Source: Steroidobacteraceae bacterium (lineage in GTDB: Bacteria > Pseudomonadota > Gammaproteobacteria > Steroidobacterales > Steroidobacteraceae). From it: a stretch of 64,000 bases of DNA. Made by a program: the position numbers and the translations under genes. The notes beneath the pieces are model-generated. The model saw nothing but the letters and a program-made list of their open reading frames with translations. It ran no database searches and was not told where the DNA came from. This document shows, piece by piece, positions 29,608 to 64,000 of the stretch (the first letter of the stretch is position 1; the number at the start of each line of letters is the position of its first letter). The stretch covers positions 31,706 to 95,705 of the forward strand of contig JAWLAE010000006.1 in NCBI GenBank assembly GCA_041395625.1. Reading direction: 5' to 3'.

Positions 29608-29622
29608 CCGAACTCGAATAAT

Positions 29623-29710
29623 GGTGCCGGGAGAGGGAATCGAACCCACACGCCTTTTTAGGGCAACGGATTTTGAGTCCGCCGCGTCTACCAGTTCCGC
29701 CATCCCGGCG
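29623..29710 (-). tRNA. tRNA-Leu (anticodon CAA), type II with long variable arm, CCA encoded
   Basis: The reverse complement reads GCCGGGATGGCGGAACTGGTAGACGCGGCGGACTCAAAATCCGTTGCCCTAAAAAGGCGTGTGGGTTCGATTCCCTCTCCCGGCACCA. The acceptor stem GCCGGGA/TCCCGGC pairs, the T-loop is GGTTCGATTCC, and the anticodon loop is CT-CAA-AA. Confidence 0.95.
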
Positions 29711-56821: not shown

Positions 56822-58285
56822 ATGCGTATTCTCGAAGAAGCATTGACCTTCGACGATGTCCTATTAGTCCCAGCTTACTCGGAGGTGCTGCCACGCGAGG
56901 TCGACCTCGCGACGCGCCTCACGCGCGGCATCACCCTCAACCTGCCGGTCGTGTCGGCCGCCATGGATACGGTGACCGAGGCACGCCTCGCCATCACCAT
57001 CGCGCAGGAAGGCGGCATTGGCATCGTGCACAAGAGCCTGACGATCGAAGGTCAGGCCCGCGAAGTGGCGCGCGTCAAGAAGTTCGAGAGCGGGGTGATC
57101 AAGGACCCGATCACCGTGCCGCCCGAGACGACGATCCGCCAAGTGCTCGATCTCACCAAGGCGCGTGGTATCTCCGGTGTGCCGGTCGTGCAGGGCAGGC
57201 AGGTGGTCGGCATCGTCACGCATCGCGATCTGCGTTTCGAGGAACAACTCGACGCCCCGGTGTCGACGGTGATGACACCGAAAGAGCGCTTGATCACCGT
57301 GCTCGAGAATGCCCCCAAAGAAGAAGTCCTGCTGCTGCTGCACAAACACCGCATCGAGAAGGTGTTAGTGATCAGAGGCGACATGGAGTTGATGGGCATG
57401 ATCACCGTCAAGGATTTCCAGAAAGCGAAGGAATTTCCGCGTGCCTGCAAAGACCCCTCTGGCCGGCTGCGCGTCGGTGCGGCCGTCGGCACGACGCCTG
57501 ATACCCTCGACCGGGTTGCCGCGCTGCGCGACGCGGGAGTCGATGTCGTGGTGGTCGATACCGCCCATGGTCATTCCCGCGGCGTGCTCGAAACGGTGGC
57601 GCGCATCAAGGCCAGGTACTCGGATCTGCAGGTGATCGGCGGCAATATCGCGACCGCCGAGGCGGCGCGCGATCTCGTCAAGGCCGGCGCCGATGCCGTC
57701 AAGGTGGGTATTGGTCCGGGTTCGATCTGCACCACCCGCATCGTCGCCGGTGTCGGCGTGCCGCAGATCTCCGCCGTTGCCAATGTGGCGGAAGCTATCC
57801 GCGATGAGATTCCGGTGATCGCCGACGGCGGTATACGTTTCTCGGGCGATCTGGCCAAAGCCATCGTCGCCGGTGCCAACGCCGTCATGATCGGCAGCAT
57901 GTTCGCCGGCACCGAGGAGTCGCCGGGCAAGGTCGAGCTGTATCAGGGTGCGTCGTACAAGGCCTATCGCGGAATGGGCTCGTTGGGCGCCATGGGCGAG
58001 CGGCATGGTTCGGCCGATCGTTACTTCCAGGACGCTGCCACCGAACTCGAGAAACTGGTGCCGGAAGGCGTCGAAGGGCGCGTGCCCTATAAAGGCAGTC
58101 TGGTGTCCATCCTGCATCAGCTGGCCGGCGGCTTGCGCGCCGCGATGGGCTACACCGGCAGCAACAGCATCGAGCAGATGCGCAAGCGGCCGCAGTTCGT
58201 TCGCGTGACGAGCGCTGGCATGCGCGAAAGCCACGTCCACGATGTGGCGATCACCAAGGAAGCGCCTAACTACCGCGTCTCATGA
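56822..58285 (+). CDS. guaB: IMP dehydrogenase
   Basis: [20 protein letters not shown], a CBS pair, [11 protein letters not shown] (catalytic Cys loop) and GGIRFSGD. Confidence 0.97.
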
Positions 58286-59871
58286 GTGGTGTGCCGCAAG
58301 CAGACATACACGCCGACCGGATCCTGATACTCGATTTCGGCGCGCAGTACACGCAGTTGATCGCCCGGCGCGTGCGTGAGAGCGGCGTCTACTGCGAGAT
58401 CCACCCCTGGGACATCAGTGACGCAGACGTGCGGGCATTCAAGCCACGCGGCATCGTCCTGTCCGGCGGACCCGAGTCCGTCAACGCCGCCGCGCCGCCG
58501 CGGGCGCCCGAATTGGTGTTTGCGCTGGGCGTGCCCGTGCTCGGCATCTGCTATGGCATGCAAACCATGGCGCAGCAATTGGGTGGTCAGGTGGAGGCGG
58601 CCGAGCACCGCGAGTTCGGCTACGCCGAGGTATCGCTGCAGGGTGCCTGCCGGTTGTTCGACGGCCTGGCCGATCGTCGCGACGCGGCAGGCCGTGCCGT
58701 GCTCGACGTGTGGATGAGTCATGGCGACCGCGTCGCGCAGTTGCCGCAAGGTTTCATTGCCGTCGGTGCCAGCAGCAATGCGCCCCTCGCAGCGATCGCC
58801 GACGAAGCGCGTCGTTTCTACGCCGTGCAGTTCCATCCCGAAGTGACGCACACGCTGCAGGGCGCGCGCCTGCTCGAGCGCTTCGTGCGCGAGATCTGCG
58901 GTTGTGCGGCCCTCTGGAGTGTCGGCAACATCATCGACGACGCGATCGCGCGGGTGCGGGCTCAAGTTGGCACCGGGCGCGTGTTGTTAGGTTTGTCGGG
59001 CGGCGTCGATTCGTCGGTGGTCGCGGCGCTCCTGCATCGGGCCATCGGTGATCAGTTGGTCTGCGTGTTCGTCGATCACGGGCTGTTGCGCCTGGGCGAG
59101 GGCGATCAGGTGATGCGGACCTTCGCCGACAACCTCGGCGTGCGAGTGATTCGGGTCGATGCCGAACAGCGCTGCCTGGCTGCGCTCGGCGGCGTGGCCG
59201 ACCCCGAGCAGAAGCGCAAGATCATCGGCAAACTTTTCATCGAGGTGTTCGACGAGGAGTCCGGCAAGCTGCAGGGGATCGACTACCTCGCGCAGGGCAC
59301 CATCTACCCCGATGTCATCGAGTCTGCCGGCAGCAAGACCGGCAAAGCGCATGTCATCAAGTCGCATCACAACGTCGGTGGGCTGCCGGCCAACATGCGC
59401 ATGCAGTTGGTCGAGCCGCTACGCGAGTTGTTCAAGGACGAGGTGCGCAAGCTCGGCGTCGAGCTCGGACTACCGCGCGAGATGGTTTATCGGCATCCGT
59501 TTCCGGGCCCCGGACTCGGGGTGCGGATCCTGGGTGAAGTACGCAAAGAGTTCGCCGATCTGCTGCGCCGTGCCGACGCGATATTCATCGAGGAGCTGCG
59601 CCGCCACGAGCTCTACGACAAGACCAGCCAGGCTTTCGCCGTGTTCCTGCCCGTGCGCTCGGTCGGCGTGATGGGCGATGGTCGACGATACGATTACGTG
59701 GTCGCGTTGCGCGCGGTGGAGACCATCGACTTCATGACAGCCCACTGGGCGCGCTTGCCGTACGATTTCCTCGATCTCGTCTCACGCCGGATCGTCAACG
59801 AGATCGATGGCGTGTCGCGCGTGGTATATGACGTGTCGGGCAAGCCGCCAGCGACGATTGAGTGGGAGTGA
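58282..59871 (+). CDS. guaA: GMP synthase (glutamine-hydrolysing)
   Basis: The GATase domain has [20 protein letters not shown] and GICYGMQ. The ATP-PPase has [11 protein letters not shown]. The C-terminal dimerisation domain ends KPPATIEWE. Confidence 0.97.
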
Positions 59872-59880
59872 TTAGGGGTG

Positions 59881-59908
59881 TTTCGCGGTCTATCGGCACC
59901 CCGCGAAA
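59881..59908 (+). terminator. hairpin downstream of guaA (tttcgcgg-N12-ccgcgaaa), possible terminator and/or part of the att region
   Basis: An 8-bp perfect inverted repeat 10 nt after the guaA stop with no clear U-tract, so the terminator assignment is weak. Confidence 0.3.
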
Positions 59909-59986
59909 TCAGAGCCTAACTCACTGAATAAAAACAAATAAGCTCTCCGAACCTTTCGCCATCTATCGGCCTCAAGCGGGACACTC

Positions 59987-60158
59987 TGACGGTAAAACTG
60001 ACGGTATGGGTTTCCTGCACCCCAAGAGACCCCGATTGTTACCGTCATAAAGTCGACGGTAATGCAGACAAGAAAACTGTGGAATTGCAGGGGAAAAATA
60101 GCAGAAACCCCTGATTTCCGCGGTGAGGATTGAGGGAATTGGGCTTCTGACGGTAAAA
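59987..60158. repeat. five copies of a GACGGTA(A) motif (four direct, one inverted) upstream of int; candidate integrase arm-type sites
   Basis: tgacggtaaaac (59987), tgacggtatggg (59999), ttaccgtcat (60039, inverted), cgacggtaatg (60054) and tgacggtaaaatt (60148), all read directly from the sequence. Confidence 0.5.
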
Positions 60159-60187
60159 TTGGGGCCGCGCCAGAACGGGGGCCCGCC

Positions 60188-61444
60188 ATGCTTACCGACA
60201 TCGCCCTGAAGAAGCTCAAGCCCCGGGAAAAGCCGTACAAAGTGACGGACCGGGATGGGATGTACGTGACGGTCTCGCCGGCCGGGACGATCACGTTCCG
60301 GTTCGACTACCGGATCAGCAACAGGCGCGAGACCCTCACCCTGGGGCGCTACGGCCCGGCGGGGCTATCCCTGTCCGCCGCCCGCGAGAAGTGCATCGCT
60401 GCCCGGAACACGCTCGCCCAGGGGCACTCACCGGCCCGGGTGAAGCAGCGGGAGAAGCGCCAGCTGGCAGCCGCCGAGACCCTGGGCCAGTTCGCCACGA
60501 AGTGGCTGGACGAGGGCCCGATGGCGGAGAGCACCCGCACCATGCGCAAGGGCATCTACCGGCGAGAGGTCGAACCCGAACTCTCGAACCGCCTTCTGCC
60601 GGAGGTGTCGTCGGACGACGTGCGCATCCTGTGCCTCAAGATCAAGAACCGGGGGTCGCCCGCGACGGCCATCCACGTCCGGGACATCGTGAAGGGCATC
60701 TACAACTTCGCGAACCTGCACGGGCACAAGGTCCCGAACCCGGCCAACGAGGTGGCGCCGACATCCATTGCCACGTTCAAGCCGCGCGAACGGGCGCTCA
60801 GCCCCGAGGAGATCCGGATCGCGTTCACGCTGATCGACAAGGTGTCGTTCGCCCATATCCACCGCCTGGCGCTGCGGATGATCCTGCTGACGCTCGTGCG
60901 CAAAAGCGAACTGGCGAAGGCGATGTGGAGCGAGATCGACTTCGACAAGGGCGTCTGGACGATCCCGAAGGAGCGCATGAAGGCACGCCGGCCGCACAGC
61001 GTCTATCTGTCGCGCCAGGCGCTGGAGATCTTCACCGCGCTGAAGCTGATGGCCGGAAGCTCGCCCTACGTATTCCCTTCCCGCTATGACGCCGATGTTC
61101 ACATCGCGGCGAGCACGCTCAACCGGGTCACGTCGCAGATCGCCGAGAAGGCCAAGGCGGAGAATCTGCCGCTGGAGATGTTCACGGTTCACGACCTGCG
61201 CCGCACCGGGTCGACGATCCTCAACGAGATGGGCTTCAACCGCGACTGGATCGAGAAGGCGCTTGCGCACGAGCGCAATGAGTCTTCGCGGGGCACGTAC
61301 AACCGCGCCCAGTACGCCGAGCAGCGGCGGCACATGCTTCAGGAATGGGCGGACATGATCGACGCGTGGGTGGCGGGCAAGACGCACACGCCAGTACTGC
61401 TGCCGTCGTCGATGAAGGTGATCGCAGCGCAGGCGCTAACCTGA
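60188..61444 (+). CDS. int: tyrosine-type site-specific integrase (P4-like, N-terminal arm-binding DUF4102-type domain)
   Basis: MLTDIALKKLKPREKPYKVTDRDGMYVTVSPAGTITFRFDYR matches the P4-integrase N-terminal domain. The catalytic domain carries LTLVRKSEL (Arg), HDLRRTGST (HxxR) and HERNESSRGTYNRAQY (His...Tyr). Confidence 0.9.
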   Translation: MLTDIALKKLKPREKPYKVTDRDGMYVTVSPAGTITFRFDYRISNRRETLTLGRYGPAGLSLSAAREKCIAARNTLAQGHSPARVKQREKRQLAAAETLGQFATKWLDEGPMAESTRTMRKGIYRREVEPELSNRLLPEVSSDDVRILCLKIKNRGSPATAIHVRDIVKGIYNFANLHGHKVPNPANEVAPTSIATFKPRERALSPEEIRIAFTLIDKVSFAHIHRLALRMILLTLVRKSELAKAMWSEIDFDKGVWTIPKERMKARRPHSVYLSRQALEIFTALKLMAGSSPYVFPSRYDADVHIAASTLNRVTSQIAEKAKAENLPLEMFTVHDLRRTGSTILNEMGFNRDWIEKALAHERNESSRGTYNRAQYAEQRRHMLQEWADMIDAWVAGKTHTPVLLPSSMKVIAAQALT

Positions 61445-61449
61445 CTACC

Positions 61450-61833
61450 TCATACGAAATGATTGAAGCTCGGTCGTCGCCCCGAATCCTCGCACCACAC
61501 GACGTGGCCCTTCTTAATCCAGAAGTGCGCGTAAGTTCCTGCGGTTTGGCGAACCGACGGATGCACGGTTGGGCGTCCTAGAATATCGCGTGAGATGGCC
61601 CAGCGCGGACGGTGATTCGCCTGAAGCGACAACTGGATGAGTTCGCGGGCGTCGCTCGGACACAGGAAATACGCCCACTTCTGGAAACCCGGCCCGCCGA
61701 CAACATAAATGATTCCCGGAGCCATATCGGCTTGCAGTGGATGGTCCGCGACGACGCGCATGTAGAAGTCTGGCTTCTCAGCAACGCCAAGCCAAACAAA
61801 AAGCGCCCGAACAGCTGAACGAATCTCATCCAT
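61450..61833 (-). CDS. DUF6527-like small protein, last gene of the Ubl/E2/E1 operon
   Basis: 127 aa from the ATG at 61833, 2 nt after the E1 stop. The core ...KWAYFLCPSDARELIQLSL...RPRWAIS...GRPTVHPSVRQ...YAHFWIKKGHVVW resembles the DUF6527 pattern as I recall it (CxCGCG...W.l...PSI...C.SH.WI..G.v.W), but most of the Cys positions are substituted. Confidence 0.55.
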   Translation of the reverse strand: MDEIRSAVRALFVWLGVAEKPDFYMRVVADHPLQADMAPGIIYVVGGPGFQKWAYFLCPSDARELIQLSLQANHRPRWAISRDILGRPTVHPSVRQTAGTYAHFWIKKGHVVWCEDSGRRPSFNHFV

Positions 61834-61835
61834 CC

Positions 61836-63257
61836 CTAGTCCATCCTGCCTAGGAACGGATCTACGTCTCCGGCACCCCATAGCGCACTGGAACCACAAA
61901 TCTGACAGCTTGCCCTGGACGTGTGCCCTGGTCGCCGGTCCTCTCCGTAGTGGAATTTCCGCACGCGGTTGGCTGAGGCTCCCTCCGGGCCCCTGAAACC
62001 TTGCAGGCGGTGAATCAGCTCATTCACCGCCATGCAGGCGGTCTCCGTTGTGAAGGTCACCACCGCGGGGCTCGGATTGCCTGCGCCGACAACGTACGAC
62101 TCGGATTTCCGACGTTCATATTCCTCAGGATTCTTTCGACGCATTGTCTCGGAGCGGGCTGCTTCCGGATCTATGACATCCCGGCAAAGCAGGCAAGTGT
62201 GGTTCGGACCCAAGACGGTGACGCGCCCATCGAGGGCTCGGATTGTCTGTGACCCCTCCGGCGCAGGCTCTATGGCCAGGCCGATGTCGAAAACAGGAGT
62301 GAGGTAGTAGTACGCGAAGCGGTTCAGAAAGAGTCGTCCCTCATGATCATCTGTGCAGCCGAAGATGACATCAGAGGCTCGAAGTACGTCTCGGCACGCC
62401 GGATCTGCGACCCACGCTTCGATCGGCACAACCCGGGAGCCCAGTCCCAATTCTGTTATCGAGCGCGCTACCACCTCGACCTTCGGGCGCATTGCGTCAG
62501 CGTCCGCTTGGCGGGAGCCGTGAAGCCGATTCAGATTTGTTACATCAACAACATCGTTGTCGATGAGCGAGATTTGGCCAACGCCGAGCCGTGCAAGCAG
62601 CATCGCAACCGCGCTTCCAGTGCCGCCGCATCCCACGATGGCCACGCGTAGCCGACGCAAGTCTTGATTGAGTGCTTGGCCAAACGCCAGAGCCTGCCTA
62701 TGAAAGGCAGGAATGGGGAGTGTGGCGGCGCGGTCAGGGTAGTGCAGGGCTAGACGCTCGCCAGCAACGCGCACCATGCGCAGCGGCGCGGCGCCATTCG
62801 GTAATGGAGTTAGCCAAGTGCGACCTGTGAGGAGACCATCAGCGGTCAGCACAAGGCTGAGCATCTTGGTTCCGACGCCATTGCGGTTTACAGCCAGTTG
62901 TACGAGATCAGGCTCGTTGGCGTCATCCTGCGCTGAGAAGAAGCATTGGCCTGCACCATGGCTATGCACGATTCCTATCTCTTGGCCGTTGGCGTTGGCT
63001 TGCCTCAATGCCGACACGAATGACGCCGTCTGCCATGTGATGAGGTTCGCTGTTCGCTCAATGACATGTTCATCCGGTACAGGGATGATTCGTGAACTAA
63101 GGAACTTGGTGTGCGCTTGGCGATCCCACGGGTCATTGCGAACCACCGCCCGGTTGCAGAGCATGTAGGCGGCATGTTCGCAGCCATCGTCACGAATCAG
63201 GTGAGACTTCAGCTGCTCGAAGTGTTCGTGCTGCAACGTCAAGCTGTAGGTTGTCAT
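61836..63257 (-). CDS. JAB/MPN (JAMM) metalloprotease - E1-like (ThiF/MoeB-family) adenylyltransferase fusion
   Basis: The N-terminal domain has Glu27 (GCEHAAY) and an intact JAMM motif H98-S-H100-x7-S108-x2-D111 (IVHSHGAGQCFFSAQD, nt 62925-62966). The C-terminal domain has the Rossmann nucleotide loop VAIVGCGGTGS, NLNRL, FGCTDD and paired CxxC motifs (C355/C358, C451/C454), as in E1/ThiF enzymes. Confidence 0.85.
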   Translation of the reverse strand: MTTYSLTLQHEHFEQLKSHLIRDDGCEHAAYMLCNRAVVRNDPWDRQAHTKFLSSRIIPVPDEHVIERTANLITWQTASFVSALRQANANGQEIGIVHSHGAGQCFFSAQDDANEPDLVQLAVNRNGVGTKMLSLVLTADGLLTGRTWLTPLPNGAAPLRMVRVAGERLALHYPDRAATLPIPAFHRQALAFGQALNQDLRRLRVAIVGCGGTGSAVAMLLARLGVGQISLIDNDVVDVTNLNRLHGSRQADADAMRPKVEVVARSITELGLGSRVVPIEAWVADPACRDVLRASDVIFGCTDDHEGRLFLNRFAYYYLTPVFDIGLAIEPAPEGSQTIRALDGRVTVLGPNHTCLLCRDVIDPEAARSETMRRKNPEEYERRKSESYVVGAGNPSPAVVTFTTETACMAVNELIHRLQGFRGPEGASANRVRKFHYGEDRRPGHTSRASCQICGSSALWGAGDVDPFLGRMD

Positions 63258-63637
63258 GCGGCAGCCTTCTCAAGGGCTTCTTCGACGCGCTTGATCATTG
63301 TCCAGATGCCGTCTGTTCCGGGGCGCCACTCCGGGTTGTGACGTGACCATCGCTGCCAACGCCGGCCGCCGAATTCCAGTGGCTGGTCAGCCGCTCGGGG
63401 ATATGTGTTGGTGGTAGTCAGCCGTACCCAGGGTTCGAGATAGAACATGTCCGGGGCGATATCGGGATATCCGCCGGGGAGCAGGATCAGGACGTCCGCG
63501 GAAGTGGCGTCAAACCGGCCACATGGCAGCGGCCGGCCCCTGAGGATGATGGCTTTGCTCCCATTCTCCTCAGTGGCTTCGAATGCAATGCCCTTCGAAG
63601 CAAGGTAGTCGCGATCTGCAGGCGGAAGAGTGATCAT
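63254..63637 (-). CDS. E2/UBC-like protein lacking a cysteine at the expected catalytic position
   Basis: 127 aa. The layout is UBC-like: a beta-meander, then LLPGGYPDIAPDMFY (equivalent to the FPxxYPxxPP flap), then a C-terminal W-x-P...helix (EWRPGTDGIWTMIKRVEEAL). The only Cys (C39) is in the N-terminal sheet. The stop overlaps the E1 start (ATGA at 63254-63257). Confidence 0.65.
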   Translation of the reverse strand: MITLPPADRDYLASKGIAFEATEENGSKAIILRGRPLPCGRFDATSADVLILLPGGYPDIAPDMFYLEPWVRLTTTNTYPRAADQPLEFGGRRWQRWSRHNPEWRPGTDGIWTMIKRVEEALEKAAA

Positions 63638-63641
63638 GTGG

Positions 63642-63902
63642 TTACCCTTCAGTCGTCGTCTTCTTCCCCGTGAAGAACCGTTCCGTCCCCTTCTCGGTGA
63701 CATCAATCTGGTCATCGTCTTTCACGAGGCGATCTTCCGGACCGCGGACATCCTGCCATGCGTCGTAGGCAGCACGATCAACTCCGGCAAGCGACTTGAT
63801 CTCAAGGCCGGTGATGGTCGCCTTGGGCCAGTCGTGCGGTTTTTGGTCGACGATGATTTTGTACGTCGTGTGATGGGGCTGCTTCTGCTGTTCGTCACTC
63901 AT
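63642..63902 (-). CDS. small ubiquitin-like (multiubiquitin-family beta-grasp) protein ending in a free C-terminal glycine
   Basis: 86 aa from the ATG at 63902, preceded by AAGGAG at 8-nt spacing. YKIIVDQKPHDWPKATITGLEIKSLAG... resembles the prokaryotic multiubiquitin domain. The C-terminus is ...KKTTTEG followed by the stop. It is the first gene of the operon, 4 nt upstream of the E2-like gene. Confidence 0.65.
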   Translation of the reverse strand: MSDEQQKQPHHTTYKIIVDQKPHDWPKATITGLEIKSLAGVDRAAYDAWQDVRGPEDRLVKDDDQIDVTEKGTERFFTGKKTTTEG

Positions 63903-64000
63903 TCGAGTCACTCCTTGCCGGGTGGATTCAAAGCCGACCGGCGGAACGCCAATCCGCCGATCCGCTAAAAAGCGTATCGCAGGCCGCAGGTAGTTGCAAG

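Follow-up and report, generated by a model that had tools for sequence, protein, structure and literature searches.

How can a protein with the layout of a ubiquitin-conjugating enzyme (UBC, E2) work when it has no cysteine where the catalytic residue is expected? This question is raised by a short gene on the reverse strand (63254..63637) of the stretch of Steroidobacteraceae DNA analysed here (GenBank assembly GCA_041395625.1, contig JAWLAE010000006.1, positions 31,706 to 95,705; 64,000 nucleotides, hereafter the window). An initial annotation, made from the letters alone, had offered three explanations for its product of 127 amino acids (MITLPP...EKAAA): a UEV-like non-catalytic adaptor, an enzyme with Ser/Thr (oxyester) chemistry, or a fold that repositions the only cysteine, C39, in three dimensions. 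The missing cysteine is real and is already explained by the known Bub family ("bacterial ubiquitination-like", earlier named the "6E" or DUF6527 operon). The protein is very probably the BubB of a Type I Bub operon, an E2-like carrier that acts by a seryl oxyester mechanism.

Identification of the E2-like protein

The product of the gene matches the Pfam family Prok-E2_E (PF14462) end to end (E 1.2e-47; 161.2 bits at a cut-off of 25), its residues 4-125 covering positions 1-123 of the 123 in the profile. A sequence search found the BubB chains of Citrobacter (9eae_C/9eav_D) at E 6e-10, and with the family profile the match to 9eae_C reached E 1e-31. The AF2 model (pLDDT 89) was superposed by Foldseek on the same chain over 126 columns with a TM of 0.91 and an rmsd of 1.3 A (E 3e-9). 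The next Foldseek matches are eukaryotic E2s. The comparison of a predicted structure with E2 folds, as proposed by the initial annotation, gave an uneven picture, being strong for BubB and loose for canonical E2s (TM 0.4-0.5, probability up to 0.87). Likewise, UQ_con was not matched at E <= 0.01 in the Pfam search, and in an hhalign comparison of alignment A2 of the family to human UBE2D2, nothing but the beta3-beta4/YP flap was matched (query 42-66 to UBE2D2 45-69), at a probability of 0.8%. We interpret the profile and model matches as strong support for an E2-like protein by way of BubB, while the similarity to canonical E2s is weak. The BubB fold itself has been reported to be nearest, among non-Bub proteins, to the E2 domain of Cap2 (PMC11601596).

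Residue counts agree with most of the layout first read by eye. The flap is present as Y57-P58-x3-P62-D63-M64-F65, although the range of 56-65 given for it exceeds this by one residue. W104-R105-P106 is found as well, but the model has one C-terminal helix (111-126) rather than the several helices proposed, in agreement with the published description of BubB as lacking the last two UBC helices (PMC11601596). C39 (codon TGT, 63521..63523, reverse strand) is the sole cysteine of the protein, and residues 66-103, including the expected active-site segment W70..H100, contain none. A cysteine-free run of 31 residues is not improbable by chance; the absence is informative because the protein is truly E2-like.

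An incorrectly placed start or frame that masks a conserved cysteine, or a chance or decayed reading frame, would remove the question altogether. A longer reading of 153 amino acids does exist in the same frame, beginning at 63715, and lends this idea some initial appeal, but its extra 26 residues overlap the upstream gene bubA in another frame and are free of cysteine. Homologues are 126-127 amino acids long and share the start methionine, and the profile is covered from residue 4 onwards. The start at 63637 is, as judged from these alignments, the correct one, and we consider an annotation error of this kind extremely improbable.

Conservation of the active site

For the conservation analysis, the protein was aligned with 110 diverse relatives (111 sequences, representatives clustered at 50% identity). 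Three translations from the representative search were left out as assembly or gene-calling artefacts, namely P0147, an 840-aa tandem-repeat translation, and the frameshifted read-throughs P0163 and P0221. All 111 sequences carry S98, H100 and W104; D63 is found in 110. The column of S98 always holds serine and never Thr, Ala or Cys, and no column of the family holds a conserved cysteine; the alignments A1 and A2 both repeat this pattern. The initial annotation had recommended a homologue alignment for finding an invariant Ser, Thr or Cys, and S98 is such a residue. That annotation did not name S98, which lies inside the segment it quoted (..RWQRWSRH).

On the reverse strand, the codons of S98-R99-H100 (63338..63346) fall within the invariant motif WQRWSRH. 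The predicted catalytic serine S98 is encoded by TCA (63344-63346) and its predicted partner histidine H100 by CAC (63338-63340). D63 (GAC, 63449..63451) lies in the PDMF flap and corresponds to the third member of the cluster at the active site of Type I Bub. Serine, histidine and aspartate together are a classical arrangement for acyl transfer.

The position of C39 displays the opposite pattern. Were C39 the true nucleophile, brought into place by the three-dimensional fold, the pathway would be an ordinary thioester one, and its being the only cysteine of the protein speaks for this reading. However, a cysteine occurs in this column in only 1 of the 111 sequences, the query itself, and the others have P, A, E, N, G, D and further residues. 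The column is variable even among relatives 60-97% identical, and at 70-75% identity it already holds N, A, T or G. In the model, C39 is located in the hairpin loop that joins the second strand to the third (27-36 and 46-53) and not in the segment that follows the flap. It aligns with D276 of Citrobacter BubB, which is functional without a cysteine there. A catalytic C39 is accordingly extremely improbable.

D63, S98 and H100 align with D299, S333 and H335 of Citrobacter BubB, although sequence identity between the two proteins is as low as about 25-30%. Ye, Gong, Chambers & Corbett (2024 preprint, PMC11601596) described the Bub family as conjugating a ubiquitin-like protein (Ubl) without cysteines, by means of a tyrosine on the E1 and a Ser/His/Asp cluster on the E2. 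In their crystal structure, S333 takes the place that the catalytic cysteine has in other E2s, opposite the tyrosine of the E1, and the invariant D299 is juxtaposed to S333/H335 (PMC11601596). It is through this structure that S98 is equated with the catalytic cysteine, C85 in UBE2D2. ATP-dependent conjugation that needs the E1 tyrosine and the E2 Ser/His was shown for the Citrobacter and E. coli systems: Y370F and S333A/H335A abolish Citrobacter conjugates in vitro and in E. coli, and S106A and Y342F likewise abolish conjugation in the Type II system (PMC11601596). The oxyester option of the initial annotation is thus supported, because S98, H100 and D63 match a family in which Ser/His are needed for conjugation.

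The same residues bear on the suggestion that BubB is a UEV-like pseudo-E2, i.e., an adaptor that has lost its catalytic chemistry and serves to bind the Ubl or a partner. UBC folds without cysteine are known from UEV proteins, the active-site position of BubB has none, and the UEV domain of Tsg101 is found among the weak Foldseek matches (rank 46, E about 1). Nevertheless, BubB is matched far more strongly than any UEV, and the Ser/His/Asp cluster is invariant at the active site. The loss of Citrobacter conjugation upon mutation of the homologous Ser/His (PMC11601596) also argues against an inert protein. Moreover, neither the operon nor the sister contigs hold a second E2, so that a pseudo-E2 would leave a conjugation pathway with its E1, Ubl and peptidase but devoid of an E2. 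We regard the adaptor as very unlikely, and retain BubB as the catalytic E2-like carrier. The lack of a cysteine at the active site of the E2 is the hallmark of Bub pathways, and the window adds no new chemistry to them.

The Bub operon

By its gene content, the locus is a complete Bub operon of BubA (Ubl), BubB (E2), BubCD (JAB-E1) and BubE (DUF6527). The genes bubA, bubB, bubCD and bubE are adjacent on the reverse strand and tightly packed: the ATG of bubB lies 4 nt past the bubA stop, the TGA of bubB overlaps the ATG of bubCD (ATGA), and bubE starts 2 nt past the bubCD stop. A scan of 61300-64000 for promoters and terminators yielded background levels only, and a Shine-Dalgarno sequence, AAGGAG, is located 8 nt upstream of the bubA ATG at 63902. 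PADLOC has no models for BubA, BubB and BubE and assigned the E1 only to generic CBASS "E1-E2" models by way of its ThiF core. Among the related loci, the E1 is present in 86 of 86 and BubE in 82.

The Ubl gene bubA (63642..63902, reverse strand) encodes 86 amino acids with one Multi_ubiq beta-grasp domain (Pfam PF14452, E 9.6e-21), and gene callers report the same length in sister contigs. In sequence searches it matches the Bil/Bub multi-ubiquitin proteins 8u38, 9d5b and 9cd2 of the PDB at E about 1e-12. The C-terminus of BubA reads ...KKTTTEG and is directly followed by the TAA stop, and therefore its mature C-terminal glycine would be exposed from synthesis. The TEG* ending is kept in most loci with split bubA and bubB.

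[quoted passage not shown] It matches the BubCD of Citrobacter (9ea4/9ea5/9eav) over residues 7-423 at E 2e-44. The JAB catalytic residues E27, H98, H100 and D111, the adenylation arginine R244 and the crossover-loop tyrosine Y388 map to E28, H91, H93, D104, R227 and Y370 of Citrobacter, respectively. The tyrosine (codon 62094-62096) is conserved. No cysteine occurs in the crossover loop (residues 362-395), and this loop is likewise free of cysteine in 85 of 86 related E1s.

BubE (61450..61833, reverse strand) is a DUF6527 serine protease of 127 amino acids with a Ser-His dyad, S93/H103 (Pfam PF20137, E 2e-19; DUF6527 has been renamed BubE in newer Pfam). Its length is called identically in sister contigs and the dyad is conserved across relatives, whereas the C4 zinc cluster is mostly lost: C58 is kept, but A62 and T100 stand where most relatives have cysteine. 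The loss of zinc cysteines is shared by the nearest BubE relatives. The cluster has been described as conserved, not as a defining feature (PMC11601596), and published work on the systems of Citrobacter and E. coli attributes protease activity to BubE.

Proposed mechanism

By analogy with the characterised systems, we propose the following pathway. BubA would be translated with a free C-terminal glycine, which the E1 domain of BubCD would adenylate. Y388 of the crossover loop would then accept the Ubl as a tyrosyl oxyester and hand it on to BubB, where it would form a seryl oxyester with S98, the neighbouring H100 and D63 raising the reactivity of the serine. BubB would finally pass the Ubl to a lysine of the target protein, with no E3 encoded. 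Removal of the Ubl may be accomplished by BubE (protease dyad Ser93/His103), possibly also by the JAB domain. The operon of the window is presumably active, and covalent oxyester intermediates presumably form.

We also have to consider that BubB may be catalytic without ever carrying the Ubl covalently. In such a scheme, S98, H100 and D63 would bind and orient the Ubl on the E1, present there as a Tyr ester or an adenylate, and would deprotonate the incoming lysine, the Ubl would pass directly from E1 to target, and BubB would act more like an E3 or cofactor. Several statements of the preprint leave room for this: the oxyester intermediates were inferred from mutagenesis, structure and the absence of cysteine; its text describes neither a test of sensitivity to hydroxylamine or base nor any chemical detection or mass-spectrometric mapping of a Ser-linked intermediate; the one adduct seen between BubA and BubB was an isopeptide to K358; and oxyesters are, according to its authors, far less reactive than thioesters (PMC11601596). 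The location of S333 at the catalytic-cysteine position, opposite the E1 tyrosine, points the other way. So does the strict invariance of the serine, which is more to be expected of a nucleophile than of a residue with a positioning role, in company with the His and Asp of a typical acyl-transfer set. We consider a BubB that never bears the Ubl covalently improbable, if less so than the alternatives discussed above, and favour transfer through the seryl oxyester on S98.

Separate bubA and bubB genes

[quoted passage not shown] The locus in the window departs from this architecture. We file it as Type I-like by its enzymes, and as an unfused variant of the published arrangement, because the JAB-E1 and the Ser/His/Asp cluster are found in the predicted proteins and the Ubl-E2 fusion is not. 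The unfused state is not confined to the window: of 80 related genomes, 59 have the two genes apart and 20 have them fused.

With no pre-protein to cut, an intact JAB domain would need another role. It is possible, though we hold it to be doubtful, that unfused Bub operons represent a functionally distinct subtype in which the intact JAB serves such a role. If so, the JAB could remove BubA from targets or from BubB alongside the zinc-less BubE, and this would contradict the view of the JAB as mainly or solely cleaving BubAB. Three Sphingomonas loci, in which the operon is split and all four JAB catalytic residues are lost, would then be the exception, showing what follows where the second role is dispensable.

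The modest comparative value of the window lies in the invariance of S98 and H100 and the near-invariance of D63, in the split Ubl and E2 with an intact JAB, which is the majority state, and in a BubE subclade without the zinc site. The split architecture and the zinc loss bear on the roles of JAB and BubE and on the definition of Type I Bub.

Genomic setting

A tyrosine integrase with Arm-DNA-bind_3 and Phage_integrase domains (Pfam; 60188..61444, forward strand) sits between guaA (58282..59871) and the Bub operon, and marks the edge of the mobile element carrying the operon. The same arrangement of guaA, integrase and Bub operon is found in the sister contigs L001-L006, which past the end of the window also contain capH/capP-like regulators (identified by PADLOC match), AbiEi/AbiEii and a VirB-type T4SS. 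The element abuts guaA rather than a tRNA: a tRNA scan of the window for an attachment site found a sole tRNA, a tRNA-Leu at 29622-29709, far from the island.

The integrative element and, in the sister contigs, the CapH/CapP and AbiE neighbours fit the proposed role in stress or phage defence. By analogy, the Bub operon may be a stress or anti-phage module under the control of the CapH/CapP pair seen upstream in the sister contigs. Protection from phage by Bub was sought by the preprint authors, who found none (PMC11601596). Our search of the literature for further work on Bub, including a peer-reviewed successor of the preprint, returned only the two 2024 preprints and passing mentions.

Comparison with known systems

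The closest known counterpart is the Type I Bub system of Citrobacter sp. RHBSTW-00271 (PDB 9EAE, 9EAV). Both systems share the Prok-E2_E family and fold, the Ser/His/Asp cluster, and the same partners, i.e., a JAB-E1 fusion with a crossover-loop tyrosine, a protease of the DUF6527 family and a Multi_ubiq Ubl with a terminal glycine. Like the operon of the window, that of Citrobacter is carried by a mobile element, and its association with CapH/CapP recurs in the sister contigs. The two systems also differ. BubAB is fused in Citrobacter, whereas bubA and bubB are separate in the window, where BubA already ends at the mature glycine and JAB processing would thus not be needed. Citrobacter BubA has three beta-grasp domains against one here, and the BubE of the window is without three of the zinc-binding cysteines, unlike its Citrobacter counterpart. 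The E1 of the window has a CxxC...CxxC motif that is absent at the aligned positions of Citrobacter BubCD.

The Type II Bub system (E. coli ZDHYS365 BubBD) shares the cysteine-free route from E1 tyrosine to E2 serine, the DUF6527 protease and the Multi_ubiq Ubl. It differs in that its E2 and E1 are fused, a JAB is lacking and the serine is accompanied by Lys and His, in contrast to the free E2, the JAB on the E1 and the Ser with His and Asp of the window.

Bil Type I/II and CBASS Cap2 are likewise bacterial conjugation modules with Ubl, E1, E2 and JAB on defence islands, and the BubA of the window matches Ubl structures of Type II Bil. Both nonetheless work through thioesters on catalytic cysteines, and neither includes a DUF6527 protein. 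To our knowledge, Bub pathways are the only Ubl conjugation systems reported to use Tyr and Ser oxyesters.

Canonical E2s (UBE2D2, UBE2N, Ubc9, Cdc34) and UEV domains share with BubB the N-terminal helix, the four-strand sheet, the YP..P flap, the active-site loop, W-x-P and the next helix. In canonical E2s an HPN motif is present and the catalytic cysteine lies about 8 residues before W-x-P; BubB of the window has neither, and has a single C-terminal helix and an additional beta hairpin (86-97) ahead of the nucleophile. From UEVs it is set apart by the invariance of Ser/His/Asp and by the lack of a separate active E2. Ester chemistry in ubiquitin transfer is also known from UBE2J2/Ubc6 and from Cys-to-Ser mutants of E2s. 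However, UBE2J2/Ubc6 keep a cysteine thioester of their own and form esters only on substrates, and the Cys-to-Ser mutants are engineered traps, whereas in BubB the serine is natural.

Operon layout and protein family

Four tightly packed genes occupy positions 61450..63902 of the minus strand. The first, bubA (63642..63902; 86 aa), encodes a ubiquitin-like protein (Ubl) that ends in ...KKTTTEG directly before a TAA stop and matches the Pfam profile Multi_ubiq (E 9.6e-21). The E2-like gene bubB (63254..63637; 127 aa) has its ATG at 63637, 4 nt past the bubA stop, and its product covers the whole Prok-E2_E profile (E 1.2e-47). The TGA that ends bubB overlaps the start codon of bubCD (61836..63257; 473 aa), a JAB peptidase-E1 fusion (Prok-JAB, E 6.5e-9; ThiF, E 1.1e-41), and bubE (61450..61833; 127 aa; DUF6527, E 2e-19) starts 2 nt past the bubCD stop. 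A longer in-frame reading of bubB, 153 aa from 63715, was rejected: it runs over bubA in a different frame and finds no support in the Pfam profile or among the homologues.

Such "6E/DUF6527" operons were named Bub by Ye, Gong, Chambers and Corbett (bioRxiv 2024, PMC11601596), and solved structures were released in 2025. Among PDB entries, the E2-like protein matches only the Type I BubB of Citrobacter sp. RHBSTW-00271 (9eae_C, 9eav_D; E 6e-10 alone, 1e-31 with the family profile). BubCD matches Citrobacter BubCD (E 2e-44, residues 7-423), and the Ubl matches Bil/Bub multi-ubiquitin proteins. The locus is a new, uncharacterised Bub member, and its BubB shares about 25-30% identity with the Citrobacter protein that was studied.

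The E2-like fold and its active site

The initial annotation had read by eye a UBC layout lacking the catalytic cysteine, and its residue positions, counted in the translated ORF, are correct within one residue. The flap reads Y57-P58-D-I-A-P62-D63-M64-F65, W104-R-P106 is also present, the segment W70..H100 contains no Cys, and C39 is the sole cysteine. The AlphaFold2 model (mean pLDDT 89, pTM 0.84) shows a beta sheet, a single helix at each end of the chain and an additional hairpin at residues 86-97. In Foldseek it superposes on 9eae_C with a TM of 0.91 and an rmsd of 1.3 A, while the next matches, eukaryotic E2s including UBE2N, Cdc34 and Ubc9, are far weaker (TM 0.4-0.5, E at least 0.09). 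A profile comparison of the BubB family with UBE2D2 aligned the YP flap alone, at 0.8% probability. The UBC layout is thus real but remote, the best structural match being BubB with the eukaryotic E2s far behind.

Residues D63, S98 and H100 fall exactly on D299, S333 and H335 of Citrobacter BubB in the HMMER alignment. In BubCD, E27, H98, H100 and D111 correspond to the JAB zinc site and catalytic Glu, R244 to the adenylation Arg and Y388 to Citrobacter Y370; the crossover loop (362-395) contains no Cys. Conservation in BubB was checked at two levels of divergence. PDMF and the whole of WQRWSRH are invariant in 30 relatives that are 60-97% identical, and position 39 already varies among these (N, A, T, G, E, D, Q, V, P or L). 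When 110 full-length representatives of a library clustered at 50% identity were aligned with the query, no column of the 111 sequences held a conserved Cys, and the query alone had Cys in column 39. The residue that proved invariant among the Ser, Thr and Cys positions is S98 (111/111), as are H100 and W104, with D63 in 110/111. K124 (codon region 63254-63265) aligns with Citrobacter K358, the lysine auto-modified by BubA in vitro according to the preprint (PMC11601596); its column is poorly conserved (K in 24/111).

Chemistry of the Bub pathway

The preprint describes BubCD and BubB as lacking catalytic cysteines. An invariant Ser (S333 of Citrobacter BubB) takes the structural position of the cysteine of other E2s; in Type I operons an invariant His (H335) and an invariant Asp (D299) lie on either side of it, and in crystal structures the invariant Tyr Y370 of the E1 crossover loop faces this cluster. 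BubA conjugation is abolished by Y370F or S333A/H335A, in vitro and in E. coli, and BubE acts as a weak Ser-His protease, taking conjugates off. The authors conclude that the pathway runs via Tyr and Ser oxyesters (PMC11601596).

Of the explanations initially offered for the missing cysteine, Ser-oxyester chemistry is the one supported for the window BubB, both by its membership of the family in which this chemistry was put forward and by the exact conservation of the catalytic residues. A UEV-like non-catalytic adaptor is not supported, since no second E2 is encoded in the operon, the active-site cluster does not vary and mutating it in the homologue kills conjugation. Nor is a repositioned C39, as this residue is unique to the query sequence. 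It is improbable that BubB catalyses transfer yet never becomes acylated, but this reading keeps some weight because the preprint text offers no direct chemical demonstration of acylated BubB. Nor does that text show the oxyester intermediates by hydroxylamine, base or mass spectrometry, so the oxyester step remains an inference from mutagenesis and structure (PMC11601596). The central observation, that the E2 lacks a catalytic Cys, is the hallmark of Bub pathways, already published, and would not surprise a specialist; variation in gene fusion, JAB and BubE is perhaps of mild interest.

Variation in BubE and in the E1 cysteines

BubE of the window and its nearest relatives (loci L007-L011, L013, L021, L032, L057 and L073 of other genomes) keep the S93/H103 dyad and lack the CPxGCG...CxxH zinc-binding cysteines that most relatives carry; residues 58-62 and the region of 100 read CPSDAR and GTYAH versus CPGGCG and CxCH. 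They appear to make up a subclade of BubE without zinc. C355, C358, C451 and C454 of the E1 form a CxxC...CxxC pair, as in the structural zinc site of the MoeB/ThiF type, which is conserved in nearly all related E1s. The pair flanks the crossover loop and lies outside it. Citrobacter BubCD has none at the aligned positions (GGSTLSDR there). Three database proteins listed as homologues are artefacts and are best excluded from family alignments: P0147, an 840-aa perfect tandem-repeat translation, and P0163 and P0221, apparent frameshift read-throughs joining Ubl, E2 and JAB-E1 in one ORF.

Mobile-element context

The island edge is marked by a tyrosine integrase (60188..61444, plus strand) that starts 316 nt past the guaA stop; no tRNA lies near this guaA-integrase stretch (58282-61444). 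The same operon, with an E2 97% identical, lies beside the same integrase and guaA in six near-identical sister contigs (L001-L006), which reach past position 64000, where the window stops within the bubA-capP intergenic region and cuts off the regulators. In these contigs an HTH_3 gene and a Peptidase_M78/IrrE-like gene, matching PADLOC capH and capP, lie directly upstream of bubA on the same strand (e.g. L002:8559-9598), followed by AbiEi/AbiEii and a VirB-type type IV secretion cluster (VirB3/VirB4/TrbC). The operon therefore occupies the integrase-side end of an element that is integrative, probably also conjugative, and has inserted beside guaA. The DNA-damage-responsive CapH/CapP pair adjoins 31% of Bub operons in the preprint (PMC11601596), and the sister contigs indicate that the window operon is likewise under such a putative regulator pair. 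Chromosomal genes past guaB vary by contig (xseA and an M23 peptidase, also in the window, versus PMSR/SDR), consistent with mobility of the island; its constant place by guaA despite these differences suggests a mobile element targeting the guaA region.

Split bubA and bubB compared with Type I operons

According to the preprint, all Type I operons have BubA fused to BubB, and JAB cleavage is required (PMC11601596). By contrast, bubA and bubB of the window are separate genes (63637-63645: ...TTEG, TAA, 4 nt, ATG), and BubA already ends at the mature glycine. Among 80 species-representative genomes with the closest relatives, spanning alpha-, beta- and gammaproteobacteria, cyanobacteria, a Leptospira, Myxococcota and a planctomycete, the two genes are separate at 59 loci and fused at 20, and one locus runs off its contig; E1 is present in all, BubE in nearly all. 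In most split loci the reactive Gly is the last residue of the Ubl (...TEG-stop) and the E2 gene starts 0-6 nt further on; a few carry 2-8 extra residues. In the 50%-clustered library, 73/110 full-length E2 domains belong to proteins no longer than 160 aa.

These split loci offer a natural experiment on whether JAB has any role beyond pre-protein cleavage, and the evidence points both ways. JAB catalytic residues are intact in 50/59, the window among them, and all four are lost in Sphingomonas palmae, S. solaris and Sphingomonas sp. UV9 (L025, L042 and L074), where GRQI or SRQE replaces E/H/H/D, the E1 Arg and Tyr are kept and the Ubl ends TEG-stop. Absent from the preprint's description of Bub operons, the unfused arrangement is common in genomes.
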